IMG/VR virus record: IMGVR_UViG_2909314774_000001
Source of the DNA: a virus
Taxonomy: Duplodnaviria; Heunggongvirae; Uroviricota; Caudoviricetes
Length of the DNA: 64,000 nucleotides
Direction: 5' to 3' (one strand)
The notes under the pieces: model-generated
Told to the model about the DNA's origin: nothing
Database searches by the model: none
What the model saw: the letters and a program-made list of their open reading frames with translations, nothing else
Translations under genes and position numbers: made by a program
Shown: piece by piece, positions 2,510 through 62,761 of the stretch
Numbering within the stretch: position 1 is the first letter of the stretch
Layout of the letters: each line of letters starts with the position of its first letter

Positions 2510-3292
2510 GTGCCAATTGTCGGTGTTCCCGGTTGGATTGGGTCTTCGGCTGTCAGTGTGACAGGCCAGAGATGGATGAGTGCGGCTCGAACGGCGGTGC
2601 AACTGCCAGCGGCTGGTTCAATGTCTCAAATGGCCGGGCGATCTAAAGAAGTTCAGTACAGCATCGGTGCGAATCATAACTACAACAAAGACACACTGAT
2701 CAACTATTTAAAATCCCAGGGGGCGACGCCAGTCGTTGTTACCATTACAGGGGATCTGGTGTCGTCCAGTAGCGGCGTGCCATGTTTAGATTTCCCGAGT
2801 TCACTTACCAACTCTTATATCAGCCTTGTAATCAACGCAGGTGTGACTGTCTATGGACGCGGTGGCAATGGTGGTAGTAACGCTGCCGGTGCTGCTGGTG
2901 GTAACGCAATTAATAATGGCATCGGTACACGCTTGCGTATTACGAATAATGGTGCAATCGCTGGAGGTGGCGGCGGCGGTGGCGGCGGTAACAGGGGTAA
3001 ACTAATATTTGGTGGTGGCGGTGGTCGCCCATTCGGTGCTGGTGGGTCTTCCTCTCATATGAGTTCCGGTGCAACTGCTGGTACTATTTCCGCTCCTGGT
3101 AAAGGATCTGTTGGTGAGGGGTCTCTTAGTGCATATACAGGCGGTTCGGGTGGTAATGTCGGTGCTGCTGGAGGAAGATGTAATACTCAAGGTAACGGTA
3201 CAGAATATAACGGCGGAGCAGCTGGTAAAGCCGTAACTGGCAACGCGCCTACATGGACTAAAGCTGGGGCAATTTACGGCGCTCATGTGTAA
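2510..3292 (+). CDS. gp38-like tail fibre adhesin with glycine-rich motifs
   Basis: N-terminus VGVPGWIGSSAV..TGQRWMS and repeated poly-Gly tracts (GGGGGGGGGN, GGGGG) resemble T2/S16-type gp38 adhesins. Start moved to in-frame GTG 2510, which has AAGGAG 8 nt upstream; the ORF-track ATG at 2453 overlaps the previous gene. Confidence 0.55.
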   Translation: MPIVGVPGWIGSSAVSVTGQRWMSAARTAVQLPAAGSMSQMAGRSKEVQYSIGANHNYNKDTLINYLKSQGATPVVVTITGDLVSSSSGVPCLDFPSSLTNSYISLVINAGVTVYGRGGNGGSNAAGAAGGNAINNGIGTRLRITNNGAIAGGGGGGGGGNRGKLIFGGGGGRPFGAGGSSSHMSSGATAGTISAPGKGSVGEGSLSAYTGGSGGNVGAAGGRCNTQGNGTEYNGGAAGKAVTGNAPTWTKAGAIYGAHV

Positions 3293-3366
3293 GTACTTAC
3301 CTACCAAGTGTGGGCGTTTTATGATATAAAACCGCCATCCCGATTTGACGATTCATGGAGGAAATA

Positions 3367-3690
3367 ATGTCGAACGAGATGGCAGGCGTAACGCCAGAGC
3401 AGGTAGAGCGCATTGCCGCTATCGTTGCGCGTGAAGTTGTCGGCAAATTAGGTAAGGAGTTGCGTGAGGAAATTGGCCAGGAGGTCAACGACCAGCTCAA
3501 AACCTACTTTGGCGATATGACGCCTTCGCAACACAGCATTCAGCACTCCAACCTGGACAAACTACTTAATCGGCTAGACGCCATCTCCAGCGGGTTCTTT
3601 GGCGGCATTATCTCAAAGATAACGTCGTTCCTGATTACCGCGCTGCTGCTGGGTCTGGCCGCTTATGGCGTGAAGAATGGACTGCAATAA
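3367..3690 (+). CDS. Small protein with C-terminal transmembrane helix, putative holin
   Basis: GGAGGA RBS 4 nt upstream of ATG 3367; single hydrophobic helix ITSFLITALLLGLAAYGV at the C-terminus; sits directly upstream of a lysis-like cluster. Confidence 0.35.
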   Translation: MSNEMAGVTPEQVERIAAIVAREVVGKLGKELREEIGQEVNDQLKTYFGDMTPSQHSIQHSNLDKLLNRLDAISSGFFGGIISKITSFLITALLLGLAAYGVKNGLQ

Positions 3691-4396
3691 CAGGAGATCA
3701 AGGATGAAAACTCCGAGAGGCATTCGTAATAACAACCCTGGCAACCTCGACAAAGGTTCGCCGTGGCAGGGGCTAATCGACAACCCTGCCGAACCGCGCT
3801 TTTGCACGTTTAAAGACCCTGTTTGGGGGATTCGTGCGCTGGCGGTGACTCTAATTACCTACCACGATAAACGTCGCGCAAAAGACGGCACAAGTATCGA
3901 TACCATTCGTGAAGTTATTGAACGTTGGGCACCGCCGAATGAAAACAACACTGACGCCTACATTAATGAGGTGTCTAAAGCCGTTGGTGTAACCGCAGAC
4001 ATGATCATCGATCTGCATGATTACGACATTCTTCGACCTTTGGTTGAGGCAATCATTCGCCATGAGAATGGGCGAGGTCCGCTAAAAACGCTGAACACCT
4101 GGTATGCGGCAGAAGTTATTGAGGAAGGTCTGCGTCGAGCTGGCGTCGTTAAGCCGGTGAAAACCGTGAAGGCTGTTCCTGTAACTAAAGAAACTGCAGG
4201 CGCAACTGTTACAGCAGGTATTGGTCTGGCGCAGCTGGCCGATGTTATGCCGCAGGTTTCCGCTGCTATGGATAAAGCACAAGGTCATATCTCTAGCGGG
4301 GATACAGTACGCATCATCTTCGGTATTGCCACTATTGTTGTGGCAGGATTCATTGCCTGGTCGCAGGTAAGAAAACACCAGAAAGGGATGGTCTAA
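3677..4396 (+). CDS. Putative cell-wall hydrolase / endolysin-like protein with C-terminal membrane anchor
   Basis: Conserved-looking N-terminal motif GIRNNNPGNL...W.G and a C-terminal TM helix (IIFGIATIVVAGFIAW); lies between the holin-like and spanin-like genes. Function is inferred from context only. Confidence 0.3.
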   Translation: MDCNNRRSRMKTPRGIRNNNPGNLDKGSPWQGLIDNPAEPRFCTFKDPVWGIRALAVTLITYHDKRRAKDGTSIDTIREVIERWAPPNENNTDAYINEVSKAVGVTADMIIDLHDYDILRPLVEAIIRHENGRGPLKTLNTWYAAEVIEEGLRRAGVVKPVKTVKAVPVTKETAGATVTAGIGLAQLADVMPQVSAAMDKAQGHISSGDTVRIIFGIATIVVAGFIAWSQVRKHQKGMV

Positions 4397-4397
4397 T

Positions 4398-4649
4398 ATG
4401 CTAGGCAGCCTGATGACAAAGCTAAAAGTTGCTTTGATTACGCTGGCTGCCGTTCTTTTCGTTCTTGTCGGCGCTTACACGATGGGCGGGAATGCGGCGC
4501 GACGAGCAATGGAAGAGAAGGCAAAACAGGAAGACAGAAAACGACTTCAAAACACAGTGAAAGTGGTGAATGAGACGAGCAGTAAAATACGTCAGAAAGA
4601 TGCTTCTGCCGTTCATCGTGAGTTGTATGATAAGTGGGTGCGTCATTAA
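4398..4649 (+). CDS. Putative i-spanin (Rz-like)
   Basis: N-terminal TM helix followed by a charged coiled-coil region; position immediately after the putative lysin. Confidence 0.45.
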   Translation: MLGSLMTKLKVALITLAAVLFVLVGAYTMGGNAARRAMEEKAKQEDRKRLQNTVKVVNETSSKIRQKDASAVHRELYDKWVRH

Positions 4650-4785: not shown

Positions 4786-4817
4786 TGTCGAAGTTCCCCT
4801 CAAATGAGGGGAACACA

Positions 4818-5339: not shown

Positions 5340-5346
5340 GAGTAAA

Positions 5347-7013: not shown

Positions 7014-8720
7014 ATGGAATCGATAGAAGTATTTTTAAAAAATTTTTTGGACTCAGATCATCGGGTTGCTGTCATAAAAGGAAATTGGGGAGTAGGTAAA
7101 ACGCATTATTGGAATAGCTTTTATACTAAACATTCTAAAAAATTAGATTTTAATGCATATTCATATGTTTCTTTGTTTGGAATAAATTCTATTGGAGACA
7201 TTAAAAAAGCTCTTTATCATTGTGCCACACCAATTAATGAAAAGAAATATAAAGAACTGATTTTATCTGAAACGGATCGAACTATGATTCGTTATAGAAA
7301 TGGGTTTTGGGGATGGTTGAAATACAACTCCTTGTCAAAATTTTTAATACATTTTGGAAAGAACGATTTTTTTGGGTTCAAAACTGATAATCTGCTGTCA
7401 TCTCTTGAGTATAAATTTGTTAATAATTATTTGGTTTGCATTGATGATATTGAACGAAAAGGTAGTGCGCTAGAAATTAAAGAGATTATGGGGGTAATTG
7501 ATGAGTTGGCAAGAAGAAAAAATTGCAAGGTTGTTCTAATATTAAATGAAGATAACTTACATGAAGAAACTGCACAACAACAGTTTTTAGAGTATAGAGA
7601 AAAAATAATTGATGTGGAAATAAAATACGATCCCACGCCTGAGAAAAACTTAAGAAAAGTTTTTTATGAGACTGACCCTGATTTTCTTTTGTTAAAAAAC
7701 CTAGTAAATGATTTAAACATCAAAAACATTAGAATATTAAATAAAATAAAATCATCTCTAGTTATATTTAGAGATGTGCTAAAGTTAGCAGAGGATAAGG
7801 TTAGAGAAAGTTTTATTAATAGATTGGTCTTATTTTCAGTGGTTTACTATTTTGGTGTTCCTAGCGTTGATTATGCTTCATTTAAGGAGTCAATCAAAAA
7901 TATACATGCATTCGACTATATGTTAGATGATAAAGATGAAAAGGAAGAAGTTAACTCTGTATATTCATTTGTTAATAGCCTTGATGTTATTTATGAACGA
8001 GCAGAAAGTGCTTTCGATGATGATATAGATTTTTACCTTAAGAACGGTTATGTTTCTTCTGAAAGCAATATTCTAAATATAATAAAAGAAAAAAATGAAC
8101 AATATAGAGATAATAGGGTTTTATGTGAGGTTTATAAAATTTGGGATGTTTTTAGAAACTCTTTTAAAGATAATGAATCAGAGTTTATTTTTCAAATTGA
8201 GCGCGTAATTAACGATAGTCTGTTGCGTATACCAATTGGACAGTTCGTAGGTTTAATAAATGTCCTAATTAAATTGGATAGAGATTGTAATAATATTATA
8301 GAGGCATATGCAGATGCTTTTGTTAATAAAGAAAATGCGTATGCTACATTTAATTCTTTGCGAGTAGAGATCTTCGGAAATGAAGAATTAGGTTTCAGAA
8401 TTGAAAAAAAATTGAAAGATAGAAATCCAGATGACTATAACTTAGATAAAATTATAAAAAAAATAGCTGGTGGAAGATTTAACCATAGTGATGTGAATAT
8501 TCTTAACAGTTTTTCTAAAGATGATTACGTAAACTGGATATTATCCTGTGATCAGGATGCTTTGAATTTAGTAGAAGAGACTATGCTCAAGTTCAAGGGT
8601 ATGCAACACCCGACAGACGAACAGAAGAGCATCACTGATAAAGCAATAGAAGCTTTGGAGGAAGTTGCTTCAAAATCAACACTTAATAAGCTGCGTGTTA
8701 ATAAAATACTCAATCATTAA
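7014..8720 (+). CDS. KAP-family P-loop NTPase (PifA-like)
   Basis: Walker A GNWGVGKT at residues 22-29 and Walker B LVCIDDIERK; the gene is markedly more AT-rich than its neighbours. Confidence 0.65.
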   Translation: MESIEVFLKNFLDSDHRVAVIKGNWGVGKTHYWNSFYTKHSKKLDFNAYSYVSLFGINSIGDIKKALYHCATPINEKKYKELILSETDRTMIRYRNGFWGWLKYNSLSKFLIHFGKNDFFGFKTDNLLSSLEYKFVNNYLVCIDDIERKGSALEIKEIMGVIDELARRKNCKVVLILNEDNLHEETAQQQFLEYREKIIDVEIKYDPTPEKNLRKVFYETDPDFLLLKNLVNDLNIKNIRILNKIKSSLVIFRDVLKLAEDKVRESFINRLVLFSVVYYFGVPSVDYASFKESIKNIHAFDYMLDDKDEKEEVNSVYSFVNSLDVIYERAESAFDDDIDFYLKNGYVSSESNILNIIKEKNEQYRDNRVLCEVYKIWDVFRNSFKDNESEFIFQIERVINDSLLRIPIGQFVGLINVLIKLDRDCNNIIEAYADAFVNKENAYATFNSLRVEIFGNEELGFRIEKKLKDRNPDDYNLDKIIKKIAGGRFNHSDVNILNSFSKDDYVNWILSCDQDALNLVEETMLKFKGMQHPTDEQKSITDKAIEALEEVASKSTLNKLRVNKILNH

Positions 8721-8728: not shown

Positions 8729-8791
8729 GACCTGCTTCCGTATGTATTTAATAAGTTACTTATTATTTGTATATACAGAAGCAGGTCTTTT
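8729..8791. terminator. Long palindromic element / putative bidirectional terminator
   Basis: Stem GACCTGCTTC...GAAGCAGGTC enclosing an AT-rich loop, then TTTT; a near-twin sits at 56152-56226. Confidence 0.5.
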
Positions 8792-8901
8792 AAAGACACC
8801 CACCAGAACAAGTCCCTTCCGTTTCCACTTCCAAAAACTGCCACCAGTCGCTATCATCCGCTCATTGTGATAAGTAAGTAACTACCTACCAGGTGAGCCA
8901 C

Positions 8902-12286: not shown

Positions 12287-12364
12287 TAACAATCACCTTT
12301 AAAATAAGTAGATGATTACTTATCTTTCTGTGAGAATACTTTCATCTGTTAGCTAGGAGTTGGT

Positions 12365-13141: not shown

Positions 13142-13196
13142 TCTCTCCGCGCGTCGTTTTTTACGCAAATAACGATAGGTAAGTACAAGATTATTT

Positions 13197-15646: not shown

Positions 15647-15881
15647 AAATACAATGATAAGTATTTACTTACTTATCTTTTATGTATAAGATGACTTTGT
15701 TTTCGTTGAGACGCGACTGTTTGAACTTAAATACAAGTGCAAACGAAGAAGTCTATCTGGCAGTAGCCTAATAAGCCAAACACCAGCGAGGTCAGTTTCC
15801 AGCCTCGTTACCGAAATGGGACACACTGAGCGAGTGTGATTGCAGAACGCAGGAGGGAACATTCATGTTCCCTCCGATGAA

Positions 15882-17269: not shown

Positions 17270-18532
17270 TTACTTTGCATAGTCGCCCAATTTTAATATT
17301 TCGCGCTTATATTCATTAACCATGCTACTGGATTCAGTATAAATTCGATTTAAAAGATTATCGTTATCTTTATTTTCATTTATCTTAATTAGTGCTAATT
17401 TATATTCATAGTCATCAAATGCCACAATTAAATGGTGGCCTGGGATTATATCTTCGTCACTCTTAAAGTATATATCTTCAAGTATGTAATCTAGTTGATT
17501 AGATTTTCTTTTCTCGATGTAATCTTCAGCCATAGCTATTACATCATTCCTGTCATTTAACCTGTTTTTTTCGGAAGGCACATCTTCGTAATGTTGCACG
17601 ATTGAACAACCAATAAGGCGTGGGATGTAAACGTCAAAATGAGTAACTCTATCATTCGCGGTTTTAAGTAGTTCCTCAAAGTAGTTTCTTACATGTAAAG
17701 GCAACTTCTCAAAGTAATCATTAATTATAGGAGAACAAGGAGTTTTATAATTCATAAGAACCGACGGTACGAGCTTTGGGTGTCGAAACATCCAGTCCCT
17801 TTTAACGTCCGATGGAACATAATAACTTTTAATGATATTATCAAAATAATTTATCATTCGAGATTTGAATATTTTGTTGAATCTAAGGTTTATGAATGTA
17901 TCCAGATAAGGCATATTTGAATAAGCATCATCAAAAAATATTTCATCATTGAAAAAATCATATTTATTCAATAAACAACACAGTTTTTCCGAATTAATAT
18001 GTTCACAATAATCGATTTTTAATCCAAAGATAGCAATGATCAACTTCATCTGAGGTGGGATTTTAAAAATTAATTGTGACACATACGCTCTTTTTTCCTT
18101 GAGACATTCCCCATCAATATAAAATGAACCATCCACATACTCAAATATATTAATAATATGCTTCACATACTGTATTACCTCATGCTGTCTTACCAATGGG
18201 TAATATAGTCTATGTAACTCATCGCTGTTTAAATTAATTTTGTGTTTATCGATAATTTGTTTTGCAAGAAGACATAACTCATCATGTTGATTTAATAAGG
18301 AATCAAACCATTGTTTAAATGCACTCTTTCGCATTTCGAACAATGATTCAGTTGTTAATTGAAGGGCTGAAAAAGCTGCTTTTGCACTTTTTCTCGCTTC
18401 GTAGGCATTCCATGCTGTTGCTATAAAAGCAAATGCTGTAGCCAATGTTCCAACAGTTTGACCATTTAAAACAACCCAATCCCAAAAAATGACGGTGAGC
18501 AGTAGTATAATAATGAAAATTAAAAAAGGCAT
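17270..18532 (-). CDS. Membrane-anchored protein of unknown function (420 aa), AT-rich island
   Basis: N-terminal hydrophobic helices (FLIFIIILLLTVIFWDWVVL; TLATAFAFIATAW) then a large Asn/Tyr/Lys/Phe-rich soluble domain; base composition far more AT-rich than flanking genes. Confidence 0.6.
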   Translation of the reverse strand: MPFLIFIIILLLTVIFWDWVVLNGQTVGTLATAFAFIATAWNAYEARKSAKAAFSALQLTTESLFEMRKSAFKQWFDSLLNQHDELCLLAKQIIDKHKINLNSDELHRLYYPLVRQHEVIQYVKHIINIFEYVDGSFYIDGECLKEKRAYVSQLIFKIPPQMKLIIAIFGLKIDYCEHINSEKLCCLLNKYDFFNDEIFFDDAYSNMPYLDTFINLRFNKIFKSRMINYFDNIIKSYYVPSDVKRDWMFRHPKLVPSVLMNYKTPCSPIINDYFEKLPLHVRNYFEELLKTANDRVTHFDVYIPRLIGCSIVQHYEDVPSEKNRLNDRNDVIAMAEDYIEKRKSNQLDYILEDIYFKSDEDIIPGHHLIVAFDDYEYKLALIKINENKDNDNLLNRIYTESSSMVNEYKREILKLGDYAK

Positions 18533-18706
18533 GTATGTATTTCACTCTACTAACTATAAAATATTAGGCTAATGTTAACCAAACAATGCCTTAATTAATA
18601 GATTGATCGAGGCTTTAATAGCTTTATAATGCAGATTGCAAAGATAAGTATGCACACACCTATCTTCTTTGTAAGTAAAGTTGCATATCAATTCTATGAG
18701 GTAACA

Positions 18707-19163: not shown

Positions 19164-20267
19164 ATGAAAAATAGCTTTGACAGAGCACGCGCTGCGGAGA
19201 ACACCTCAAAAGAGGCGATAGAGTATCTCGAAAGAGCATCTCAAATGCAGGCCGTTATGATCTCCCAGGTCAGCAATGACATGAGATTCTCGGACGCATT
19301 CATGTTATTCACTCGCTTATCTCTGCTGATAACCAGACGTCGGCCAGAGATCGCTGTTCATTGTATTTTGATACATGTTTTGCCGCACATTGCCGATGTA
19401 AAAGTAAGTGACATTAATAGGTTCATGGTGAACCAACTGGTCAACCCACTAATACTGGATGGCAAAATTGTTATGGGCCGCCGCGTTTTCTCTCTGATGA
19501 AGCAGTTCCTTAGCTGGTGCGCCTTCCAGGGGATGATAGACGTGTCACCGTTAAACGATATGTCACTTAACAAAGTTGCCGGTGGCGCAAAGCCCACACC
19601 TCGCGAGCGGAAGCTGACCGACGCAGAGGTATGGGTGTTCTGGAATATATGGGACTACTTCAATGTGTGTGCTGGTACAAAATGGGCGGCCAGGCTATGT
19701 CTTGTATCCGCAAGACGACCTGACGAAGTACTGCGGGCTAAAAAAAGTGAGTTCAATCTTAAGCGTGGGGTTTGGAATCAAGGCAAGAGGAACAAATCTG
19801 CCCGTGAGCATTCTCTGCCTTTAAGCTCATTAATGCGCACTTGTATTGAAGAGTTGTTCGAATATGGTAAAGACAGCCAGTGGCTCGTGCCTTCGAATAA
19901 AAAAATCGGGAAAGACCTTCCTATGTCTAAAGTGGCAATAGCCCAGGCATTACGTCGTATTCTGGAACGACCAGAACTGATGGAGCTTGAGCCATTTACA
20001 CCCCGAGATTTGCGCCGTACTGCGCGTAGTTACTTCCCAGCATTAGGCATAAGCCAGGAGGTATCACGTAAAATCATGAACCACAGTCTTGAGGGGATAG
20101 ATCGGGTCTACGACCGGCACGATTATATGGACGAGATGCGAGACGCCTTAGAAAGTTTCTCGACGTACATCGCATCAATCGTAGAGCAACCGGATTTAGA
20201 CGAAATTGACCACAAATTTAAGGGAGATCGTCTATCAACAGAGCTTATTCGTGTAAATTTTTCATAG
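19164..20267 (+). CDS. Tyrosine recombinase (phage-integrase family) lacking an N-terminal arm-binding domain
   Basis: Core-binding and catalytic domains with R...H..R...Y-type segments (LVSARRPDEV..., ...RDLRRTARSYF..., HSLEGIDRVYDRHDY); nothing upstream resembles an arm-binding domain. Confidence 0.7.
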   Translation: MKNSFDRARAAENTSKEAIEYLERASQMQAVMISQVSNDMRFSDAFMLFTRLSLLITRRRPEIAVHCILIHVLPHIADVKVSDINRFMVNQLVNPLILDGKIVMGRRVFSLMKQFLSWCAFQGMIDVSPLNDMSLNKVAGGAKPTPRERKLTDAEVWVFWNIWDYFNVCAGTKWAARLCLVSARRPDEVLRAKKSEFNLKRGVWNQGKRNKSAREHSLPLSSLMRTCIEELFEYGKDSQWLVPSNKKIGKDLPMSKVAIAQALRRILERPELMELEPFTPRDLRRTARSYFPALGISQEVSRKIMNHSLEGIDRVYDRHDYMDEMRDALESFSTYIASIVEQPDLDEIDHKFKGDRLSTELIRVNFS

Positions 20268-20648
20268 AGACTTTATGGCCTCAACAACCTTTTGTGATGC
20301 GCCTTTCTCTTTACCGAATCGCTCGTTATATGCAGCAAGAACCTGTTTTTCGTCCTCGTTAAGAGGAGCAGTGCCTTCTTTGTATAAAAATGCTGCGAGT
20401 TCGGGTTGGCGTTCTTCCAGCACCATCATCATAAGACGACTTGGCTCAATACCCAGTGCCAGCGCCAGCGGACGAACCTTATCGATAGGCAAAGGAATTT
20501 TGCCGCTTTTAATTAAAGAAAGGTTGTTGGCGTTTTTATACCCAATTGTTTTGGCTATCTGGGCCTGGCTCATAGGTGAGGATTCAATCAACCCTGCGAT
20601 AAAAGCAGCGTAGCGACTTTCTATAAATTCAATCTTGTTATCAGACAT
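20262..20648 (-). CDS. XRE-family helix-turn-helix transcriptional regulator
   Basis: HTH segment SQAQIAKTIGYKNANNLSLIKSGK; divergent from the downstream + strand genes; its promoter region carries a GGTAAGTGCTTACC palindrome. Confidence 0.7.
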   Translation of the reverse strand: MSDNKIEFIESRYAAFIAGLIESSPMSQAQIAKTIGYKNANNLSLIKSGKIPLPIDKVRPLALALGIEPSRLMMMVLEERQPELAAFLYKEGTAPLNEDEKQVLAAYNERFGKEKGASQKVVEAIKSL

Positions 20649-20899
20649 GGTTACAACCTTTGCGCGTTCAATTCTCTCTGGTAAGTGCTTACCGATATTA
20701 CATCAAAGGTTAGGGTTGTAAAGCTATTATCATTTTTTTCGATAGGCACTTAAAAGACCGGTTAAAGGCCATTGCACGGAGAAAAATTAGCCCAAAACAG
20801 GTAAGAAAATCAACTTGCATATGATATGAATGTATTCAGTATTGATACAAATTTTAGTAGTATTCCTTACCATAATATAAGTTAGAATGGATTGATTGA

Positions 20900-21112
20900 A
20901 TGAACACCACTATTTCCAGCCTAATCGCTCTTGAGATCGGACACGTACAGAAATTAGCTGATGAGTGTGTAGCTGACATCCTCACCGATCTACCGAATGA
21001 GCAGATTCAGGTTGGTGTGAATGACACAACTGGATTTATATTCGAACTTAACAACAAACGCTTCACGCTTCTCAATACCGGCTCCGGGTCTTTAGCCGTC
21101 AGAATCTGTTAA
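20900..21112 (+). CDS. Hypothetical protein
   Basis: 70-codon ORF downstream of an AT-rich divergent promoter region. Confidence 0.4.
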   Translation: MNTTISSLIALEIGHVQKLADECVADILTDLPNEQIQVGVNDTTGFIFELNNKRFTLLNTGSGSLAVRIC

Positions 21113-23319: not shown

Positions 23320-23414
23320 TTAAAACAGCCTTAATGATAAGTAACTACTTACCATAGTTAATGGTATATTTATATAAGAACTTGAACGCTCATTAGAGAA
23401 CAAAGGAAAAGCGC

Positions 23415-28380: not shown

Positions 28381-28652
28381 AAGAATTATGGCGCTTGTTG
28401 AGGAAGTCACTCCTCTTACGCACTTTGTTTTGCCATGCCGGCAGTTAGCTTCTGCCTTTGACTATTCATGCGGCAACCCCGCATTTCGCCACAATGGGCA
28501 ATTCACTTTTATGGAATAAACTGGCCGTTGTGTCGATTTAATTAGCATGGCCTTACCATGCTAATTTATTCAACTTGTACAATCCTGCAAATCTATCCAC
28601 TCAGGCTTACACCGTCTTCGTTATTGTAGAAATGAGGATCATCAGCGTTGAA

Positions 28653-28868
28653 TCAGCTTAGAGCAATGACATTTGCTGCTGCTGGGCCTTTAGCCCCATT
28701 CTCGATAGAGAATTCGACCTGCTGGCCTTCTTCCAAAGTGCGGAAATTATTACTCTGAATTGCCGAAAAATGTACAAAAACATCTTTACTGCCATCAGCA
28801 GGAGAAATAAAGCCAAAGCCTTTATCAGAGTTAAACCATTTTACTAAACCAGTCATTTTATTAGACAT
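28653..28868 (-). CDS. Cold-shock protein (CspA family)
   Basis: [23 protein letters not shown]...VFVHFSAIQ... closely matches the E. coli CspA-family sequence; start set at the conserved MS.KMTG. Confidence 0.95.
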
Positions 28869-29197
28869 AGATATTACCTTCTTAATTTTGTGAGCCACAT
28901 AGTGCGGCGAGAATTTGATCTGTATAGATTGGGACTTACTTAGGCACTTAAGGAGGAGACTCACGAAGAAGGGAAATCAGAAGATAACACTGAACTGAGA
29001 CTGCTTTACTAAAACTGCTTACATAAGGTCTGTCTTGCAAACCAACGATGCTATTAACGCATACCCCTTCTTTTCATGCAACCTTTATTTTTCAAAGATA
29101 ACTAATTTTTGTCACCATTGGTTTAGTAAACGTTAACGAACCAGACGATGCCAGACACCTTTACAGAGAACAGATGCCCGCCAATTGGCGGGCATCA

Positions 29198-30732: not shown

Positions 30733-30849
30733 TTTTTGATAGATAATAAGTAAGTACTGATCTATCATTTAACAGCTCGAAAGAGCCACGAATGAACGAA
30801 AGCCCAACGCGCATAGCGCCATCGGCCAAATCACAACAAGGAGAAACAC

Positions 30850-34227: not shown

Positions 34228-34256
34228 ACAAGGCGTCCACAGGACGCCTTGTTTAT
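34228..34256 (+). terminator. Intrinsic terminator
   Basis: AAGGCGTCC-ACAG-GGACGCCTT followed by a T-rich tract. Confidence 0.6.
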
Positions 34257-34317
34257 CTCTTGAAAATATATAAGTACTTACTTATTATTTTCGCATAACA
34301 ACCACATAGGAAAACAC

Positions 34318-36200: not shown

Positions 36201-36415
36201 GTTTACAGTAAAATTTATATAAGTTAGTATCTACCTATCATGAAGATTTTTATTGAATACTTGTTACTCATCGTTTCAATAGCTTTTGTCATCGACTGCA
36301 TTTTCACTGGTGTCATTCGTAAAGTCTTTTCCCCGGTGCACGACGTAGTCATAAACGCTTTGGCTATCGTGCTCGTATTTAATTCAGCATTTGATGTAAT
36401 CAAAGAGGTGGCAGC

Positions 36416-39895: not shown

Positions 39896-40150
39896 CCCTC
39901 CAGATCGTATATTGGCGTAGATAGAATCTACGCCCCCTCAAAATAGCTCTCATAGCGTTCTACAGTGATCCTGTCTTATTTTTAGTCATACAGACAAGCA
40001 AAGTTGCGCCACGATAAATAGGTATATACTTACTTATAAATTTTTGTATATTAAGGCGCTCGTTTCATTCCTAACATACCGTTATGCATAGTTGTTTACC
40101 TCCTCATTGCTCTTAGAATTTGTATCAAAATAACCACAAAGGAAAAACAC

Positions 40151-41469: not shown

Positions 41470-43382
41470 AGTTTTTAAAGCTCCAGGTTGAGAATTTTAT
41501 GGCTATCGCCAGCGCGGAGGTCGAGTTAGATCAGCGTGGTTTAGTGCTTATTCAGGGTGTTAATAGTGATGATAGTTCCGCATCAAGTAATGGCTCTGGA
41601 AAGTCAACTCTAATGAATAGCCTGATGTGGTGTCTTTATGGCGAAACAGCTCATGGTGTGAAGGGTGACGATGTGTTGTCTACCGACCATGAAAAGAACT
41701 GTCGTGTTGCAGTAACCATCGAGGATGAAGGCAAGAGATACGCAATCATTCGTCACCGTAAACACAAAGAGTTCAAAAATCGTCTTATCGTTCGTGGTGA
41801 AGATGGCGATATGACGAAAGGCAAAGATGCGCTGACGCAGGAGTTCGTCGAGCGTCTGATCGGTGCATCTAAAGAGGTTTTCATGGCTTCCATCTATGCG
41901 AGCCAAGAAGCTATGCCAGATTTACCTGGAATGTCCGACAAAAACCTCAAAACCATCGTAGAAGAAGCCGCTGGCGTTGACAGACTGACACGCGCCTACG
42001 CTATTGCTCGTGAGCGAGCTAATGCAGCTGCCGCACGTATGGATGTGGTTAAAACCAAATTGGAGTCGACAATCTCGACCATTGAGGCAACACAGTCAGA
42101 AATTGAGTCAGCGAAAGCCTCCTCTGAATCATGGGAGCAAGAGCGTTCTAAACGTTATGACGATGCCCTGGCTGGGCTGGCCAGTGCCGAAGTTGAGTTA
42201 ACGGAAGTTGAACTTGAGATCCGCACTCTTCCCGAACAGATACGTGATACCGAGAAGGCAATCGAAAGTGAGCGCAAAAAGTTAGCCTCAAAAGAAGAAC
42301 ATGACGCCAAGTTGCTCAAAGTTCGTGGTGCGATAACTGATATTCGGGCAAGCATCAAAGCTACAGAAAATAGTCAGGCTGATGCAATGAGCCGCGCGCG
42401 TAATTTTAAGACCAAAGCAGAAGAGGTTGGTACTAAAGTGGGATCACCATGCCCTACTTGTGGCAAAGCCTACTGCGAAGAAGATCTATCAACGGTGAAG
42501 GAGAATTTCATTGAACAAGCACGTCAGGAAATTGGTCAGGCGAAGACACTTGCAGAGGCAATGGCTAAACACAAAACGAATCTTGAGAAAGCGTTAAGCA
42601 TTGAGTCTGCCCTTGTTAAAACGACACCTGATGTAACGGCTATCATTGCCCGGATTGAAGAGCTTACGAAACAACTCTCATCTTTGCGTCATCGTGAGAA
42701 GGAGGTTGTTGCTATTGAGTCTCTTGTGACTCGTGCTCGTACTGAGGTCGATCGTATATCAAAAGAGATTAATCCGTTTATTGCTCTTATCGCCAGACAC
42801 GAAGATAACCTGGTATCCAGTAAGTCTACCTTCAAGTCCTTAAAAGATGAGTTGAAGGCTATTCAGGAACAAACGTTGCTATTGGAAAAAGCTCGTCAGG
42901 TCTACTCTCCTGCCGGGGTGCGTTCTCATATTTTGACGTCTGTTACGCCTTTCCTGAATACACGCACTGCCGAGTATCTCAATACGTTGTCTGACGGGAA
43001 TATTACTGCTGAGTGGTCGACGATGGATGTCACTAAAAAAGGTGAGTATCGCGACAAATTCAACATTAGTGTGCAGAAGAAAGGTTCAAGTAAGTCGTTC
43101 CAGACCCTCTCTGGTGGTGAGAAGCGGAAGGTTCGCATTGCGTGTTCTTTGGCATTGCAGGATCTGGTTAGTAACCGGGCGAGTAAAAACATCGATTTGT
43201 TTATCGGCGACGAAATTGACGATGCACTCGATACAGCCGGTCTTGAACGCCTCATGGGTATTCTGGAGTCCAAAGCTCGCGAGCGAGGTACTGTGCTGAT
43301 TATCTCCCATAAAGAGATGAAGTCATGGTTCCGGGAAACTATTACGCTGGAAGTTAAAGAGGGGCGCAGCTATGTCGTTTAA
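41466..43382 (+). CDS. SbcC/Rad50-like ATPase
   Basis: N-terminal Walker A (NGSGKST), central coiled coil with CPTCG zinc hook, C-terminal signature LSGGEKRK and Walker B LFIGDEID. Confidence 0.85.
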   Translation: MKFLKLQVENFMAIASAEVELDQRGLVLIQGVNSDDSSASSNGSGKSTLMNSLMWCLYGETAHGVKGDDVLSTDHEKNCRVAVTIEDEGKRYAIIRHRKHKEFKNRLIVRGEDGDMTKGKDALTQEFVERLIGASKEVFMASIYASQEAMPDLPGMSDKNLKTIVEEAAGVDRLTRAYAIARERANAAAARMDVVKTKLESTISTIEATQSEIESAKASSESWEQERSKRYDDALAGLASAEVELTEVELEIRTLPEQIRDTEKAIESERKKLASKEEHDAKLLKVRGAITDIRASIKATENSQADAMSRARNFKTKAEEVGTKVGSPCPTCGKAYCEEDLSTVKENFIEQARQEIGQAKTLAEAMAKHKTNLEKALSIESALVKTTPDVTAIIARIEELTKQLSSLRHREKEVVAIESLVTRARTEVDRISKEINPFIALIARHEDNLVSSKSTFKSLKDELKAIQEQTLLLEKARQVYSPAGVRSHILTSVTPFLNTRTAEYLNTLSDGNITAEWSTMDVTKKGEYRDKFNISVQKKGSSKSFQTLSGGEKRKVRIACSLALQDLVSNRASKNIDLFIGDEIDDALDTAGLERLMGILESKARERGTVLIISHKEMKSWFRETITLEVKEGRSYVV

Positions 43383-44694: not shown

Positions 44695-44767
44695 TTTCAT
44701 TGATAGGTAAGTGCTTATCTATTAACATGGGCCACTATATTTAGTGGCCCTCTTTATTTGGTGATAC

Positions 44768-49278: not shown

Positions 49279-49449
49279 TTGTAGGTAGTTATCTATCTGT
49301 GTATATTGCGTTGGCGCGTTAAATTTCTGAAACAACTATTCGTTTTTGGTGGCCTATGGCCACCATTTTTTTATCTATCTGGTCTTGTTCTCTCAATAAA
49401 TGTAAACTCACGCAATGAATAAGTGGTTACTTATCTTTGTGAGGTTTTT

Positions 49450-53907: not shown

Positions 53908-55055
<1,148 letters not shown>

Positions 55056-55536
55056 TATGGCACCTGTGTTGTTCTGAGGTGAGCATATCACCTCTGTTCA
55101 GGTGGCCAAATTCAGTAAACCACTTCAGAGACACCTTCTCACAGAAAAGAAGGCTACAAGTAATAGTATTAAGATTGCTTTAATGAGCAATCCAGAAAAA
55201 CCGTATCCGCTTAACACTGCGTCAACTCAGGCTGGGCAAATGATGGCTGTATTTCCAGCGACAGGAATTGCCGTTAGAGGCGGTGGAAATCTAACATTGA
55301 ACGAAGAATCACCGATCGTTAAGAAGTTTGTCGCGGAGTACACTATTGGATGACGTTCCCCTACTGAAAATAAAGCCCATAGAGAGCTTTATAGTGCTGG
55401 GTAAGCCAATCACATACCCAGCACCACAAAAACGCGCCAGAGAGCTTCTCGTTTGCATTTCTGGCGCGTTTTATTTGATTGCCAGACATAAAATCAAATG
55501 CAAAAATAGGTATTTACTTACCTATCGAGAAAGAAG

Positions 55537-56151: not shown

Positions 56152-56226
56152 AGCCTGCTTCTGTATATATAAATAACTACATATTAATTATTAATATACG
56201 GAAGCAGGCTGTTTTGTATCAGAGAC
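56152..56226. terminator. Long palindromic element / putative terminator (twin of 8729-8791)
   Basis: Stem AGCCTGCTTC...GAAGCAGGCT around an AT-rich loop containing TGTATATATA, followed by GTTTTG. Confidence 0.5.
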
Positions 56227-56291: not shown

Positions 56292-56546
56292 ATGAATCAC
56301 TTTAAGGAAACTAACATGTCATACCCGACTAATGTCGTTGCGCTCGTAGAGAGCGATTTTCTGGCCCAGGCCCGTGAAATGATGAAAGATCGCGAGCAGG
56401 CTTTCAACTTGTACGAATGGGCAATTAAGTGCTTGCATCTTGGGGAGCATCGCGAACTTGTTGAACAGCTTTTAGGTGAGTTGATTAACGAGGTGTTTGC
56501 CTTGAATGTTCAACTACATGGTCGAGAAAATAATCAATCGAAATGA
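56292..56546 (+). CDS. Hypothetical protein
   Basis: 84-codon ORF. Confidence 0.4.
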   Translation: MNHFKETNMSYPTNVVALVESDFLAQAREMMKDREQAFNLYEWAIKCLHLGEHRELVEQLLGELINEVFALNVQLHGRENNQSK

Positions 56547-57130
56547 TAGATAAGTACAAACTATTCATAAAGTGAATTGTAAGTGCTAAGATCTGATAGT
56601 TTCCAGTCGTAGACTGGAGACTCGACCTGATGGGTGGGGGTAAGCGTCACTGGCGTCAGGTTTAAAAAAGCTCACTACCAGCGTAGAACCGGTGCCGTTT
56701 AGGTGTCGGGGAAGGGGGAACCAAAGTGAGCGGAGACAAGGGTCACTTTATGATTGTCGAGTCTGGGGTGTTTCGAGAGGTTGAATCCAGTACTCCCCTT
56801 CATAAAGTGTGGGAAGATCTCGGTTCTGGGGTGCTGTCATCCATAACTTCCCAAGTCTAAGCTGGCAGTAGACTTAGGCCATAACTTTTCAGGTTATGAA
56901 ACGACCAGGTTGGTGAGGGATTTTTATACTCACCTCCCTGGGAGAGTATTACCTGAAAAGACAACCTCTCACTTCGTTCGAGGTGAACTTCACTCACTTC
57001 GTTCGTTCAGTTCAGGTTTATAAAAACCTGTTCTGGGAAGTAATTTGTTTATTTTAATAATTATTAACACGCACGCGTGTGCGCACGCGCGAGGAAAAAA
57101 ATCGGCGCGGCGCTTGATTCAGGAGTTTAT

Positions 57131-57724
57131 ATGACGACGAAGACACCAGCCCGATCGCAAGAAAAAACTCGCAAAAAAGCCAAAAACAAAAATTCTCCCC
57201 GCACCAATTCCACAACGCCTGTCGTAGAGTTCAATCCCCAGCTTAAAACCGTGAAAATCTTCAGTGATGGCTCTTGCCTTAAAAATCCGGGTGGCCCGGG
57301 CGGTTACGGTATAGTTCTCCAGTATCGTGGTGAGGAACGCGAGTTCTCAGATGGTTTTCATAGCACCACCAATAACCGCATGGAGATGATGGGGGCACTT
57401 ATCGGGCTGGAGCGTTTGAAATATCCATGCAACGTTATTTTGCACTCTGATAGCCAGTATCTGAAAAACGGCATGACACAGTGGATGAAATGGTGGAAAC
57501 GCAATGGATGGGTGACTTCTGACAAAAAACCGGTAAAGAATGTTGATCTGTGGAAGCGTCTGGATGAGGCTGCAAGTCGACATAATGTTCGCTGGAAGTG
57601 GGTTAAAGGTCACGCCGGGCATCGTGAAAATGAAATATGTGATCGACTCGCGAAGATCGCAGCTTTTTCCGCAGCAGATATGCCTCACAAGAAAGATATT
57701 GGTTTTGTTTACAACAAGCAGTAA
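57131..57724 (+). CDS. rnhA: Ribonuclease HI with basic N-terminal extension
   Basis: RNase H motifs (FSDGSC...[25 protein letters not shown]); start moved to ATG 57131 (AGGAG 6 nt upstream) to leave the GC-alternating tract upstream. Confidence 0.85.
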
Positions 57725-57869
57725 GTAAGTGTTTACCTATCATTTTAAATCATGTATCTTATCAGCGTCAGGATGACAATGTGTCGGTAAGACACAGTTC
57801 CAGGATGGAACGAGAAAGGCGGCTGGCAATCGCCAGCCGCAACTCTTTCTGACACTGGATGGAGTCCAC

Positions 57870-58571: not shown

Positions 58572-58664
58572 CGGTTGTTAGTGCATATGCATTGACCGTC
58601 TTTTCGTAAGCAATTCATGTAACTAGAAAACAACTTGTTTTAACAAATAACAAAAGGAAAGCAC

Positions 58665-59957: not shown

Positions 59958-60012
59958 TCTGATATGGCCGCATGATCGGCCATATTGTGTTGATAAAAAA
60001 CAAGGATGAAAA

Positions 60013-60294: not shown

Positions 60295-60296
60295 TT

Positions 60297-60911
60297 ATGT
60301 TCGGGATGTCAATTACTCAATCAGATGGAAGTTTGTGGATGAGTCCAGAATTTACTCCGCAAAATCTGATTAATAAAGGGACAATGTCTACATCTAAAGG
60401 TTCTGTTTTTCAAACATCAATCCCATCAAACAAATCATGCTTTTTCTTCATAAAAAGCAGTAATAAGGCGAACATGATGTTTATTCATGAGCATAGTAAC
60501 GGATACAATGCTCTCAGATTGCATCAGGTAAATGGTAGCCCCGGAACAATAACAGTTTATGCTTTTTCTGATATGGTGTTACCACATTCTGGCTATGGCA
60601 TTGCCATGTATAACAGCGCAGGCGCAATGGTGTATCACGGTGAGATGATGCCCCTTGATGCGAAACTTATCACTATTTCTGACCCTCAATTTACAATAGA
60701 TATGGGGTATCCATGTGCGGTAATGCCTGCTATGGTTGGGGTATATAACTATAGACGAACCGATTACGACAGACCTGTCTATGTAACAATGACAGGTGCA
60801 ACTGGAAACCAAGTATATAACGGTCAATGGTATTCCGGTAATGTCACATGGGATATTAAGAAGATTTATACAAACAAAATTCTGGTGATAAATACCTCCA
60901 AGTATGATTAG
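60297..60911 (+). CDS. Hypothetical protein
   Basis: Start set at ATG 60297, directly after the previous stop. Confidence 0.4.
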   Translation: MFGMSITQSDGSLWMSPEFTPQNLINKGTMSTSKGSVFQTSIPSNKSCFFFIKSSNKANMMFIHEHSNGYNALRLHQVNGSPGTITVYAFSDMVLPHSGYGIAMYNSAGAMVYHGEMMPLDAKLITISDPQFTIDMGYPCAVMPAMVGVYNYRRTDYDRPVYVTMTGATGNQVYNGQWYSGNVTWDIKKIYTNKILVINTSKYD

Positions 60912-61014
60912 CCAATGCCTTTATTTGAAGGATTGCCTGTTTATTTCTATTTAGTACCTTTTCATTTTTGAAATAATTGCACCATTAAACAAATCACTTC
61001 TTAATGGTGCAATT

Positions 61015-62700
61015 ATGAATACAGCCCTTTCCATCATCGACGATGCCAACTCAAACACTGCTATCGACTATCGGCAGGAAATGAACGTCATCCACGAAAT
61101 TGTGGCCGAGTGCGAGAAAGAGATCGCCTTCATGTATCAGGTACACGACTTCGTTTATGGCGACGAACGCCACAACATGATTAATCGCCTGCTGAGACTA
61201 AACCATCGACCAGATGAAGATCGCTCGCGTTTAAATCGAGGTTGGTTGGATAAAGTCGATCTGGAATGGGTGAAACAGAATATTTGGGCCGAGTACTGGA
61301 GGAAGGTCACGGACATGACTAACGTTTTGCTGATCATGCCAGCTTCCCGTCGAGATGAGTGGCGCGAGCAGTTTATAGAGGGCAAACAGGAAGTCATCAA
61401 AACTGACAGAACCGGCTACCAGATGAAGGTTAAAGAGTTCGTTGGTGTACCGGAGTTCAAAGCAGAAACGGTCATACCCACGATGCTTAATTTGCTGAAT
61501 GACAGGCACAAATATCTCTCTGAGCGCGTGTATGGCTTGTTTAAGGCGCTGAGTCCTGCGCACAAGACAAATAAGACAAACGGTTTCAGCGAACGTCTGA
61601 TAATCGCTGACTGCATTTCTGATTTCTGGCGGGACAGCGTTAGTGTGAACTATCGCAAAGAGGACTATATCGACGATCTGCGTGTCTTGCTTCATTTCTT
61701 CGCGCACAAAGAATTTATTACCATCAACCGCACTGCTGAGGTGCTATCAGCTGCGTATCGGGCAAACGACTGCCAGACCGGTGACTGGATGAACGTCGAT
61801 GGAAATCTAATGCGCGTGAAGATGTTCAAGAACGGCAACGTTCACTTTGAAATACATCCTGACGTGGCCTGGAAGTTGAATGAGGTGCTGGCTTACAGTA
61901 TGCCTGCTGCAATCCCCGCGCCATGTCGCACCGCGCCAAAAACACGGGCACCAAAGCAGTTCGGGTTAATCCAGAAGACGATCTCCGTGCCGGTTCGCAC
62001 TGCGCTTCGTGACGGGCGATTAAGCAAAGACAAAGGCGTATGGTACTTCTCTGATTCAGCTCTCCAGAAGTCGCAGGTGGAAGAGCTTGAGCGCACACTG
62101 AGCTTCATTGGCGGCGTGCAGGAGAAAAAGCACTGGCAGTTCCCGTATGAGATCGGCCATACGCTAAATACGATTGTGGCTACCGGATTAATACCGGATA
62201 CAAAATCACACCAGTTCTACCCTACCCCACGCTTGATTGCTGAGTACGTTGCCAGAGCCACTGAATTGAAGTCTGGTGAGAAGCTGCTGGAGCCTCAAGC
62301 CGGACGTGGGGATCTTCTGGCCTATATCAACGCCGATCTGGAAGATGTTACCTGCATAGAAATCGCACCTCTCTTCGCTGATATCCTGCGCGGAAAAGGG
62401 TATACGAACACGATTTGCTGCGACTTCATAAAGTGGTCTGAGGACAACGTAGGTTATCAGTTCGACAAAATCGTTATGAACCCGCCGTACTCGCTTGGTC
62501 GTCATAGAGAGCACACGCTGGCTGCGCTGGGGCATCTGAAAGTCGGCGGGCGTCTTGTAGCAGTATTGCCGGGCACTGCGCCAATACTGGACTGGATGAC
62601 GATGGATAATTACGTTTATGCCAGAGGGAAGTCGTTTACCAACGAGTTTGAAGACACAGGGATCACAGTCAGCGTATACGTTTTCAAACGCGTTAAATGA
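61015..62700 (+). CDS. Two-domain protein with C-terminal SAM-dependent N6-adenine methyltransferase domain
   Basis: Motif I LLEPQAGRGDL and motif IV NPPYS in the last ~160 residues; ~400 residue N-terminal domain of unknown function. Confidence 0.65.
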   Translation: MNTALSIIDDANSNTAIDYRQEMNVIHEIVAECEKEIAFMYQVHDFVYGDERHNMINRLLRLNHRPDEDRSRLNRGWLDKVDLEWVKQNIWAEYWRKVTDMTNVLLIMPASRRDEWREQFIEGKQEVIKTDRTGYQMKVKEFVGVPEFKAETVIPTMLNLLNDRHKYLSERVYGLFKALSPAHKTNKTNGFSERLIIADCISDFWRDSVSVNYRKEDYIDDLRVLLHFFAHKEFITINRTAEVLSAAYRANDCQTGDWMNVDGNLMRVKMFKNGNVHFEIHPDVAWKLNEVLAYSMPAAIPAPCRTAPKTRAPKQFGLIQKTISVPVRTALRDGRLSKDKGVWYFSDSALQKSQVEELERTLSFIGGVQEKKHWQFPYEIGHTLNTIVATGLIPDTKSHQFYPTPRLIAEYVARATELKSGEKLLEPQAGRGDLLAYINADLEDVTCIEIAPLFADILRGKGYTNTICCDFIKWSEDNVGYQFDKIVMNPPYSLGRHREHTLAALGHLKVGGRLVAVLPGTAPILDWMTMDNYVYARGKSFTNEFEDTGITVSVYVFKRVK

Positions 62701-62761
62701 TAGGTAAATACTTACCTAATTTGTGTAAGAATGTAGTTACTAAACGATAAGAGAAAAACAC

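Follow-up and report, generated by a model that had tools for sequence, protein, structure and literature searches.

A family of short intergenic palindromes runs through a 64,000-nucleotide (nt) stretch of phage-plasmid DNA (IMG/VR record IMGVR_UViG_2909314774_000001, Caudoviricetes; the whole stretch is called the window). The palindromes are on balance probably double-stranded DNA (dsDNA) sites for a dimeric protein encoded by the phage-plasmid itself, namely the XRE-family immunity repressor, which would use them as genome-wide operators and roadblocks. The family is real and intergenic, its members keep their positions between relatives, what they conserve is sequence rather than pairing, and the motif is linked to the promoter of the XRE gene. 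The identity of the binding protein and the mechanism of silencing are what we infer from these observations. Over a 12-kb piece, the window shares 98% identity with Escherichia phage Cyrano (OV696614) and ~80% with Salmonella phage SSU5. Cyrano is the pLF82 plasmid prophage of E. coli LF82, a phage-plasmid of the SSU5 family.

The repeat unit is a 22-bp perfect palindrome with zero spacer, GATAGGTAAGT.ACTTACCTATC, and its consensus is RATARGTAAGT.ACTTACYTATY. An earlier note on this DNA had described two 12-mers held 2–5 nt apart; there is no such spacer, as the two 12-mers share the central TA. In a symmetric position weight matrix (PWM), the best-conserved positions are T3 A4 and G6 T7 A8 together with their mirror positions, giving a two-half-site layout. 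Each arm consists of two tandem 4-bp units (TARG-TAAG), and this internal periodicity explains both the apparently variable spacers and the copy at 49414, which lies in a 4-bp-shorter register.

All 14 intergenic copies reported in the earlier note are present, at or within a few bases of where it placed them, although its list was incomplete and left out the copies at 18643, 36218, 40017 and 56545. Enrichment over background, which the note had proposed to check, is borne out. With up to 2 mismatches allowed, the window has 20 matches to the half-site GATAGGTAAGTA, vs 3.3 ± 2.0 expected, and the full 22-mer with up to 6 mismatches occurs 15 times, vs 0.125 expected and a maximum of 1 in 200 second-order Markov simulations. 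The symmetrised PWM finds 19 window sites of at least 12 bits where 0.15 are expected. Of these, 17 are intergenic or touch only a stop codon (binomial P about 1e-15). Whole-genome scans give about 27 copies each in Cyrano and SSU5.

The conserved property of the family is the sequence of each half-site and not its pairing, which points to a dimeric dsDNA-binding protein. When folded as RNA, the copies have a mean free energy of -2.7 kcal/mol, with 8 of 18 at -1 kcal/mol or weaker, and the consensus palindrome reaches -9.5 kcal/mol at most. In 143 distinct 22-mers, each read in the direction of its gene, G:T mispairs are as common as A:C mispairs (135 vs 133). This argues against an RNA stem, because a stem would tolerate G:U and not A:C. 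Arm-to-arm covariation was sought by re-pairing the arms at random within each genome and is absent from all three: true and re-paired arms form 130 vs 136.3 ± 4.3 Watson-Crick pairs in the window, 183 vs 188.0 ± 5.5 in Cyrano and 198 vs 196.5 ± 5.2 in SSU5. In addition, copies that consist of a left arm only (13174 and 56545) are kept in relatives. The T-rich tract said to follow many copies is the right half of a symmetric AT-rich flank, which has a mean of 3.2 T in the 8 nt downstream vs 3.1 A in the 8 nt upstream; at least 5 T of 8 are found at only 4 of 18 sites. The copies form no stable G+C-rich hairpin and carry no one-sided U-tract, as an intrinsic terminator would, and they show neither the compensatory pairing nor the preference for G:U over A:C of a structured RNA. 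Genuine G+C-rich terminators, with compensatory changes between lineages, adjoin several copies as separate hairpins, for example at 44729-44750.

These results bear on the view that the palindromes act in RNA, whether as AU-rich terminators, as RNase III/E processing sites, as 3'-end stabilising hairpins or as targets of an RNA-binding protein of the FljA or Hfq kind. The view draws on sites that lie directly after stop codons inside co-directional operons, on the changes in transcript level at palindrome junctions, and on the presence of an FljA-family repressor in the phage-plasmid family (CYRAN_114) and of an Hfq-like protein in Acinetobacter. It is nonetheless very unlikely, as the weak folding, the equal mispairs and the lack of covariation all oppose it, as do the conserved one-arm copies, the symmetric flanks and the terminators that stand beside the sites as hairpins of their own. 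The copy at the XRE promoter, furthermore, coincides with the transcription start of a gene read from the other strand. Neither the AU-rich terminators nor the RNase processing hairpins of the earlier note are supported. An FljA-like (Flag1_repress) or Hfq-like protein that reads the sites as RNA was rejected because the structure tests argue against a hairpin target. The Hfq-like protein is encoded next to dnaB in one Acinetobacter plasmid (L129 35896-36435), the only one in which it is annotated, and none was detectable in the enterobacterial members.

The sites are also conserved in place. Those of Cyrano and SSU5 occupy orthologous junctions, and the same holds for Klebsiella relatives and Y. 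pestis pFra. In Cyrano and SSU5, the structural operons carry sites at the terminase/portal junction, downstream of the capsid gene and of the tail genes, and upstream of the tail-tube and holin genes, and a block of small genes of roughly 20 kb, at 85–105 kb, has almost none. In orthologous alignments the palindrome is kept while its flanks drift. Mean pairwise identity is 0.85 within the palindrome vs 0.63–0.67 in the flanking blocks, a comparison subject to ascertainment bias, as the sites were picked by PWM score. An exact-pattern scan of IMG/VR returned 120 loci; 77 of them are SSU5-like and hold 219 sites in 672 kb, and the 43 unrelated loci hold only the single seeding match each.

This pattern of retention also speaks to whether the copies could be a selfish or structural repeat, akin to repetitive extragenic palindromes (REP) or miniature inverted-repeat transposable elements (MITE), that multiplied in the genome without any part in regulation. 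Many similar, short intergenic palindromes are what such a repeat would leave, and replication slippage could make the 4-bp sub-repeats. Nevertheless, orthologous sites are retained across relatives of 72–98% identity and persist in modified form where capsid identity falls to about 58%, conservation is higher in the sites than in their flanks, and the family is confined to SSU5-like elements, the unrelated IMG/VR loci showing the seed match alone. A repeat of this kind is therefore highly improbable.

Diverged lineages carry the same design with a different consensus. A relative from A. baumannii, with a capsid about 58% and an XRE protein about 40-48% identical, has 26–33 copies of RATCAGTCAGT.ACTGACTGATY, which departs from the enterobacterial consensus at positions 4 and 8. 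Upstream of the XRE gene of this relative lie three such copies or variants, and one occupies the gap between the uvsW and parB-like genes, as in Cyrano. The Acinetobacter pDD520 lineage (XRE 38% identical) has ATWAGTAAGC.GCTTACTWAT, with 11 copies in 40 kb vs 0.32 expected, and weaker palindrome variants ahead of its XRE gene. In a divergent Klebsiella lineage (XRE 48% identical), the palindrome is the 4-bp-shorter ATAAGT-N4-ACTTAT, two tandem copies of which lie in the XRE promoter region. The XRE recognition helices differ between these lineages, and the sequence comparison is suggestive of a palindrome variant that changes along with the XRE protein.

The candidate reader is an XRE-family helix-turn-helix (HTH) repressor of 128 amino acids (aa), encoded at 20262..20648 on the minus strand, identical to CYRAN_45 and assigned to HTH_19 and phrog_8. 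A tyrosine integrase gene (19164..20267, plus strand) converges on it, the two forming an int-XRE module. The predicted XRE promoter (20695..20722, minus strand; -35 TTTACA, 16-nt spacer, -10 TAATAT) is conserved in relatives, and directly after it, over the predicted transcription start, lies the palindrome core GGTAAGTGCTTACC at 20680-20693, within a core-only copy at 20676..20697. The earlier note was correct to place a copy in this promoter region, but what is present there is the inner 14 bp only, with a PWM score below 10 bits. The core at the XRE promoter is kept where the XRE homologue is 66%, 65% (Y. pestis pFra) or 56% identical, and in Klebsiella pJN2-26, with an XRE of 56% identity, it is the exact consensus GGTAAGTACTTACC. 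The inner 12-mer of the window copy is an exact GTRAGYRCTYAC, a sequence that is taken up below with SlmA. The ORF divergent from XRE (open reading frame; 20900..21112, plus strand) encodes a 70-aa homologue of CYRAN_46 and may be a Cro-like partner in the switch; no recognisable domain was found in it.

Further support for the XRE protein comes from its distribution and expression. XRE homologues occur in 994 PLSDB plasmids and the SSU5-type capsid gene in 952, with matching genus profiles, which makes XRE a core gene of the SSU5-like family. Misson et al. list it as the putative master repressor of Cyrano. In their RNA-seq data for the LF82 lysogen, XRE has 96 normalised counts and the lytic genes are at background, with 5–12. 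The proposal in the earlier note that the palindromes are operators of an XRE regulon is accordingly the best-supported reading, in view of the core at the XRE promoter, the status of XRE as a core gene, its expression and the lineage variants, all of it circumstantial evidence. The word operator must, however, be widened to include roadblock-type sites, because many copies lie where no promoter fits.

Phage SSU5 has the palindromes and is without the int-XRE module (SSU5 about 42600-42760, locus L005). All 821 of 821 related plasmids hold extra DNA exactly at this int-XRE junction, with flanks up to 99% identical. By this comparison the type phage of the group, SSU5, seems to have arisen through a recent deletion in which the repressor was lost. 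The deletion fits loss of a lysogeny repressor, and the phage is annotated with a lytic-type host record. As the deletion is recent, it accounts for the sites that are still intact in SSU5, and these say nothing against XRE. An argument that took the missing gene as proof against XRE binding was withdrawn, since the deletion is recent and unique to SSU5 among the 821 relatives.

The palindromes mark transcription-unit boundaries, and the transcript data leave the mechanism behind this unfixed. In LB, expression steps in the Cyrano transcriptome showed no difference between junctions with and without a palindrome. In macrophages, the interior of which is described by the authors of the transcriptome (Misson et al.) as a genotoxic setting, the median step was 1.89 log2 at junctions with a palindrome vs 0.89 log2 at those with none (one-sided Mann-Whitney P = 0.017). 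The most induced units in macrophages start directly after the Cyrano palindromes at 57445, 59398, 9017 and 3526, the first two of which correspond to window sites 34265 and 36218.

Promoter predictions were compared with the sites in three 20-kb pieces of the window (1-60000). Matches to sigma70-like promoters are depleted relative to dinucleotide-preserving shuffles (27 vs 37.6, 28 vs 30.4 and 16 vs 27.1), and 7 of the 21 plus-strand matches overlap palindromes. The registers of overlap vary, with the palindrome in the spacer at 34265, on the -10 at 36218 and 55505, and from +6 at 18643, and such variation fits a repressor and not an activator. Several copies lie only 0–10 nt from the next start codon. 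Strong -10 hexamers show no excess on the gene side of the sites over the mirrored side (3 vs 2, 2 vs 3, 3 vs 4 and 5 vs 5).

The same test removed a candidate that had been raised by eye, a MotA-box or P1-late-type promoter element with TGTAAGAAT or TGTATAAGAT after several copies, as it gave no directional excess. More generally, the sites have neither the fixed distance to a -10 nor the fixed orientation of an element read by an activator or a sigma factor, such as the T4 MotA box or the P1 late type. A phage sigma factor as reader was rejected as well, since one is present in both Acinetobacter lineages and none is detectable in the enterobacterial genomes. In these Acinetobacter SSU5-like plasmids, the sigma-70-family protein is encoded between a cobS/moxR-like gene and dnaE (L132 15101-15766; L129 19397-20080).

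If the XRE repressor is the reader, silencing would proceed as follows. In the plasmid-prophage state, the repressor, which may bind as a dimer of dimers, would bind the 14-bp core over the start of its own transcript and thereby regulate its own synthesis. It would also occupy the full 22-bp sites across the genes for lysis, replication, recombination and nucleotide metabolism and, elsewhere in the genome, across the structural genes. Where a site overlaps a promoter (as at 18643, 34265, 36218, 44702 and 55505), RNA polymerase would be excluded, and where there is no room for a promoter (as at 8869 and 13174) the bound repressor would act as a roadblock or insulator at the gene junction. The outcome would be roughly 85 kb of co-directional lytic genes kept silent beside plasmid-maintenance and moron genes that are always on.

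Several observations weigh against the XRE repressor as the reader. The copy at its promoter is the inner 14 bp without the conserved outer T3 A4, so that the full sites could be read by another protein. The absence of a gene-side excess of -10 hexamers means that most sites are not classical promoter operators. Expression steps at the palindromes go both up and down, and the sharpest drop, from CYRAN_30 to CYRAN_31, was discarded as evidence for a roadblock, being confounded by a 60-bp long-stem terminator 80 nt upstream. Several sites stand directly upstream of intrinsic terminators, an order that a repressor model leaves unexplained. The cross-lineage PWM matrix is not cleanly diagonal, with all empirical P values about 0.1, which is why the co-variation of XRE and palindrome is taken as suggestive only; the pDD520 XRE-promoter site even scores higher with the matrices of other lineages. 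Lastly, the core matches the binding site of a host protein, SlmA.

The sites might instead be read by a different plasmid-encoded protein: the Cro-like product of ORF 20900-21112, one of the two ParB-like proteins as a KorB-type global regulator, or a lytic-cycle regulator so far unrecognised. The XRE-promoter copy would then mean that XRE is itself controlled by that protein. The missing outer bases of this copy agree with such a reader, as do the site in the divergent uvsW/parB-like region of both Cyrano and the Acinetobacter relative and the expression steps seen at palindromes only under partial induction, and the lineage-specific variants prove a plasmid-encoded protein without saying which. 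Nonetheless, the two ParB-like genes are at background in the lysogen (5.0 and 9.5 counts) and are part of the silent late operon, the Cro-like ORF is without a recognisable domain, and no further HTH regulator proved to be conserved and adjacent to a site throughout the lineages. Another plasmid-encoded reader is thus unlikely, though it heads the alternatives, ahead of the host protein SlmA, a function in RNA and a selfish repeat, in that order.

Further candidates were rejected on grounds of their own. A ParB/KorB-type binding protein in the lysogenic state is contradicted by the silence of the ParB-like genes there. CYRAN_98 was considered as a cleavable repressor of the CI type, but it is a UmuD-like peptidase of 129 aa and has no HTH extension. 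Core sites of a tyrosine recombinase were dismissed by reasoning, as 27 symmetric sites would scramble the genome. None of the host transcription-factor motifs compared with the sites (Fur, LexA, TyrR, TrpR, CpxR, HipB and Arc) fitted; the only one that did was that of SlmA.

SlmA, the nucleoid-occlusion protein of enterobacterial hosts and in E. coli a division inhibitor, was considered because of the core GTAAGTACTTAC (GTAAGT.ACTTAC), which exactly fits the pattern of the SlmA-binding site (SBS). That site, GTRAGYRCTYAC, requires G, T, A and G at positions 1, 2, 4 and 5, accepts any purine at position 3, where a change of G to A leaves the Kd unchanged at about 60 nM, and accepts any pyrimidine at position 6 (PMC3020112). 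The 20-bp SBS consensus GTAAGTGAGCGCTCACTTAC, that is GTAAGTGAGC.GCTCACTTAC, is built of tandem GTnA units (quoted in PMC4423959). It agrees with ATAAGTAAGTACTTACTTAT (ATAAGTAAGT.ACTTACTTAT) in 14 of its 20 positions; of the 6 that differ, 4 are positions of documented tolerance. The window sites have the extended 20-bp architecture GTnAGTnAGY.RCTnACTnAC and agree with 10–13 of its 16 specified positions (mean 11.3), where random 20-mers score 4.6 and the validated SBS12 and SBS17 score 13 and 14. With up to 1 mismatch, GTRAGYRCTYAC has 8 matches in the window vs 1.5 expected, 7 of them palindrome copies.

These likenesses could mean that in enterobacterial hosts the palindromes are mainly SlmA sites, either influencing the FtsZ ring or borrowing SlmA as a silencer. 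On an SBS, SlmA is present as a dimer of dimers, and the 4-bp GTnA periodicity of the site is shared by the palindromes. An SBS inside a promoter represses that promoter, and SBS on multicopy plasmids cause a SlmA-dependent block of division; a cell would hold more SBS-like sites on the element than on the chromosome. The reading is nevertheless doubtful, and less probable than a second plasmid-encoded protein. A. baumannii has no SlmA orthologue (PMC7481262, PMC13060281), yet its relatives of the element keep 26–33 palindromes of the same design, so that SlmA cannot read the whole family and a plasmid-encoded reader must exist. No SlmA homologue was found on the phage-plasmid elements with a SlmA sequence as query. 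The positions at which SlmA is permissive are tightly fixed within any one lineage, and two lineages in one host species differ there. Moreover, an exact 12-mer SBS is present in only 2 of the 19 window sites (the copy at 3289 and that at the XRE promoter), position 5, at which SlmA prefers A, is G in about half of the sites, and chromosomal SBS, which number 24–52 per 4.6 Mb, are reported outside promoter regions.

The two readers might also be combined. The palindromes would then be operators of the plasmid repressor and, in enterobacterial hosts, mimics of SlmA sites that block the Z-ring on induction, a scheme that we regard as speculative and put on a level with SlmA acting as the main reader. 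With about 27 sites on each of about 5.5 plasmid copies, a lysogenic cell would have roughly 150 plasmid sites vs the 24–52 of the chromosome. Most of these plasmid sites would be hidden by the repressor, or they would couple division to the segregation of the plasmid. Upon induction, the repressor would leave and the replicating DNA would expose thousands of SBS-like sites, activating SlmA cell-wide, so that Z-ring assembly would be blocked and the cell would stay undivided until lysis. If so, the phage would take over nucleoid occlusion by DNA sequence alone, with no dedicated inhibitor protein.

The individual copies show how varied the junctions are. The palindrome CATGTGTAAGTACTTACCTACC (3284..3305) overlaps the stop codon of a Gp38-like adhesin gene, 49 nt before the holin gene, and its inner 12-mer (3289-3300) is the exact SlmA-type GTRAGYRCTYAC. 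At 8869..8890, GATAAGTAAGTAACTACCTACC ends 2 nt before a listed ORF (GTG 8893; ATG at about 8900) that precedes the helicase gene, downstream of a 60-bp hairpin at 8729-8787. The primase gene is followed by AATAAGTAGATGATTACTTATC (12303..12324) and then by an extended -10-like TGTGAGAAT; CYRAN_34, the Cyrano gene downstream of this site, is expressed in the lysogen. The left-arm-only copy GATAGGTAAGTACAAGATTATT (13174..13195) leaves 1 nt before the start codon that follows it. Upstream of the tRNA cluster lies GATAAGTATTTACTTACTTATC (15656..15677), with a conserved TGTATAAGAT after it, and upstream of the glutaredoxin gene lies GATAAGTATGCACACACCTATC (18643..18664), 6–27 nt beyond the start predicted for a sigma70-like promoter at 18603-18630. 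A weak palindrome, GATAAGTAACTACTTACCATAG (23336..23357), separates the cobT-like and cobS-like genes, and AATAAGTAAGTACTGATCTATC (30745..30766) separates the uvsY-like gene from that of the gp32-like SSB.

Further along, AATATATAAGTACTTACTTATT (34265..34286) fills the spacer of a sigma70-like promoter, TTGAAA-17-TATTAT (34260-34288), directly after a terminator at 34228-34252. The copy TATAAGTTAGTATCTACCTATC (36218..36239) abuts the next ATG and overlaps two sigma70-like matches, and AATAGGTATATACTTACTTATA (40017..40038) lies between the ASCH-domain and sbcD-like genes. The top-scoring palindrome, GATAGGTAAGTGCTTATCTATT (44702..44723), begins 7 nt after the ruvC-like stop codon; 5 nt after it stands the separate true terminator at 44729-44750, ahead of the ribonucleotide reductase (RNR) alpha gene. 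In this terminator and its orthologues, a -10-like loop is kept (TATATT, TACATT or TATATA) and the stem varies by compensatory substitutions, a pattern that may reflect a terminator overlapping with a promoter in front of the RNR genes. Before thyX, at 49414..49435, is the variant copy in the 4-bp-shorter register (ATAAGT-N4-ACTTAT), with ATAAGTGGTTACTTAT at 49419-49434. The remaining copies are AATAGGTATTTACTTACCTATC (55505..55526), 10 nt before the ATG of an adenine methyltransferase gene; the left-arm-only GATAGATAAGTACAAACTATTC (56545..56566), which overlaps a stop codon; AGTAAGTAAGTGTTTACCTATC (57720..57741), over the stop codon of an RNase H-like gene; and GATAGGTAAATACTTACCTAAT (62699..62720), over that of a DUF4942 gene and followed by a conserved TGTGTAAGAAT.

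The window is about 90% coding and nearly all of its genes are on the plus strand. By the Cyrano annotation it spans the end of the tail-fibre genes, the genes for lysis, toxin-antitoxin, parA and replication, a tRNA cluster, integrase/XRE, cobT/cobS-like genes, Pol III alpha, T4-like recombination, repA and nucleotide metabolism. Accessory content unlike that of Cyrano includes a T4 Gp38-like tail-fibre adhesin (2453-3292, plus strand), a KAP-family P-loop NTPase downstream of parA (7014-8720, plus strand), a 420-aa ORF with no Pfam match (17270-18532, minus strand) and an IS3-family transposase (53908-54726, minus strand). There is also a full-length match to the cspA thermoregulator 5' untranslated region (Rfam RF01766, 183 bits) at 28628-29046 on the minus strand, followed by a cold-shock-domain gene; the pair looks like a cold-shock moron, because Cyrano has hicAB at about that position.

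A long-stem hairpin of ~60 bp occurs twice in the window, at 8729-8787 and 56152-56210, with arms GACCTGCTTCCGTATGTA and TATATACAGAAGCAGGTC, a T-run after each, and an AT-rich loop that holds a weak sequence resembling the palindrome family. The element recurs at the orthologous positions of Cyrano. It probably acts as a strong terminator, possibly in both directions, and as such would explain the drop in expression after the parA operon. Outside the window, Cyrano CYRAN_114 (L004 12780-13301), which is labelled 'transcriptional regulator', is a full-length match to Pfam Flag1_repress (FljA; E = 1e-80). FljA is a post-transcriptional repressor of the flagellin gene fliC, and on this homology CYRAN_114 may allow the phage-plasmid to silence host flagellin.

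As far as the searchable literature shows, this conserved family of putative protein-binding palindromes is undescribed: no account of the motif, of SSU5 operators or of an SSU5-type lysogeny-lysis switch was found there. SSU5-like phage-plasmids are common in clinical Enterobacterales and Acinetobacter, with about 950–1000 PLSDB records, and include Y. pestis pFra/pMT1, plasmids as large as Salmonella pHCM2 and carriers of resistance genes. If the palindromes are XRE operators, the whole regulon of the repressor could be read from sequence, immunity groups could be predicted from the palindrome variant, and the model of genome-wide silencing would be directly testable. The likeness to SlmA sites could, in addition, reveal a link between a mobile element and the control of host division.

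Among the closest known arrangements are the stoperators of the mycobacteriophages L5 and Bxb1, which are sites for the gp71 and gp69 repressors and reportedly block elongating polymerase and so silence the prophage. Stoperators number two to three dozen, lie in the short intergenic spaces of early and late operons, with extra copies at the control region of the repressor, and are asymmetric 13-bp sites that act in one orientation. The family described here likewise has dozens of near-identical, dispersed sites of repressor type that are confined to intergenic DNA over early and late blocks, and a copy at the control region of the candidate repressor, which is the core only and not the full 22 bp. 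It differs in consisting of 22-bp palindromes with 4-bp sub-repeats, in its unrelated candidate XRE protein and in its setting, an enterobacterial plasmid prophage; being palindromic, the sites are not stoperators in the strict, one-orientation sense of L5. P1 is also a plasmid prophage with one repressor, C1, at many scattered operators rather than at a single immunity region, and it has the extra immunity layers of Bof, Coi and c4/ant. Its operators are asymmetric 17-bp sites, each tied to a promoter, whereas many sites here cannot hold one, and C1 and the candidate XRE are unrelated. On the IncP plasmid RK2, the plasmid-encoded KorB and KorA likewise read dispersed palindromes (OB and OA), about a dozen identical ones, some at promoters and some far away. 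KorB belongs to the ParB family and reads 13-bp sites, whereas in the present family the ParB-like genes are silent in the lysogen and the candidate reader is an XRE HTH protein.

Like intrinsic terminators and T7-type RNase III sites, the palindromes are inverted repeats after stop codons in long co-directional operons. They differ in having no stable pairing, covariation, tolerance of G:U or downstream U-tract. The SBS (PMC3020112, PMC4423959, PMC3573117) are of near-identical design, with tandem 4-bp units and dozens of dispersed copies per replicon. The phage-plasmid palindrome differs from them at the outermost base and at position 5, and its sites stand at gene junctions at a density of about 27 per 108 kb vs the 24–52 SBS per 4.6 Mb of chromosome.

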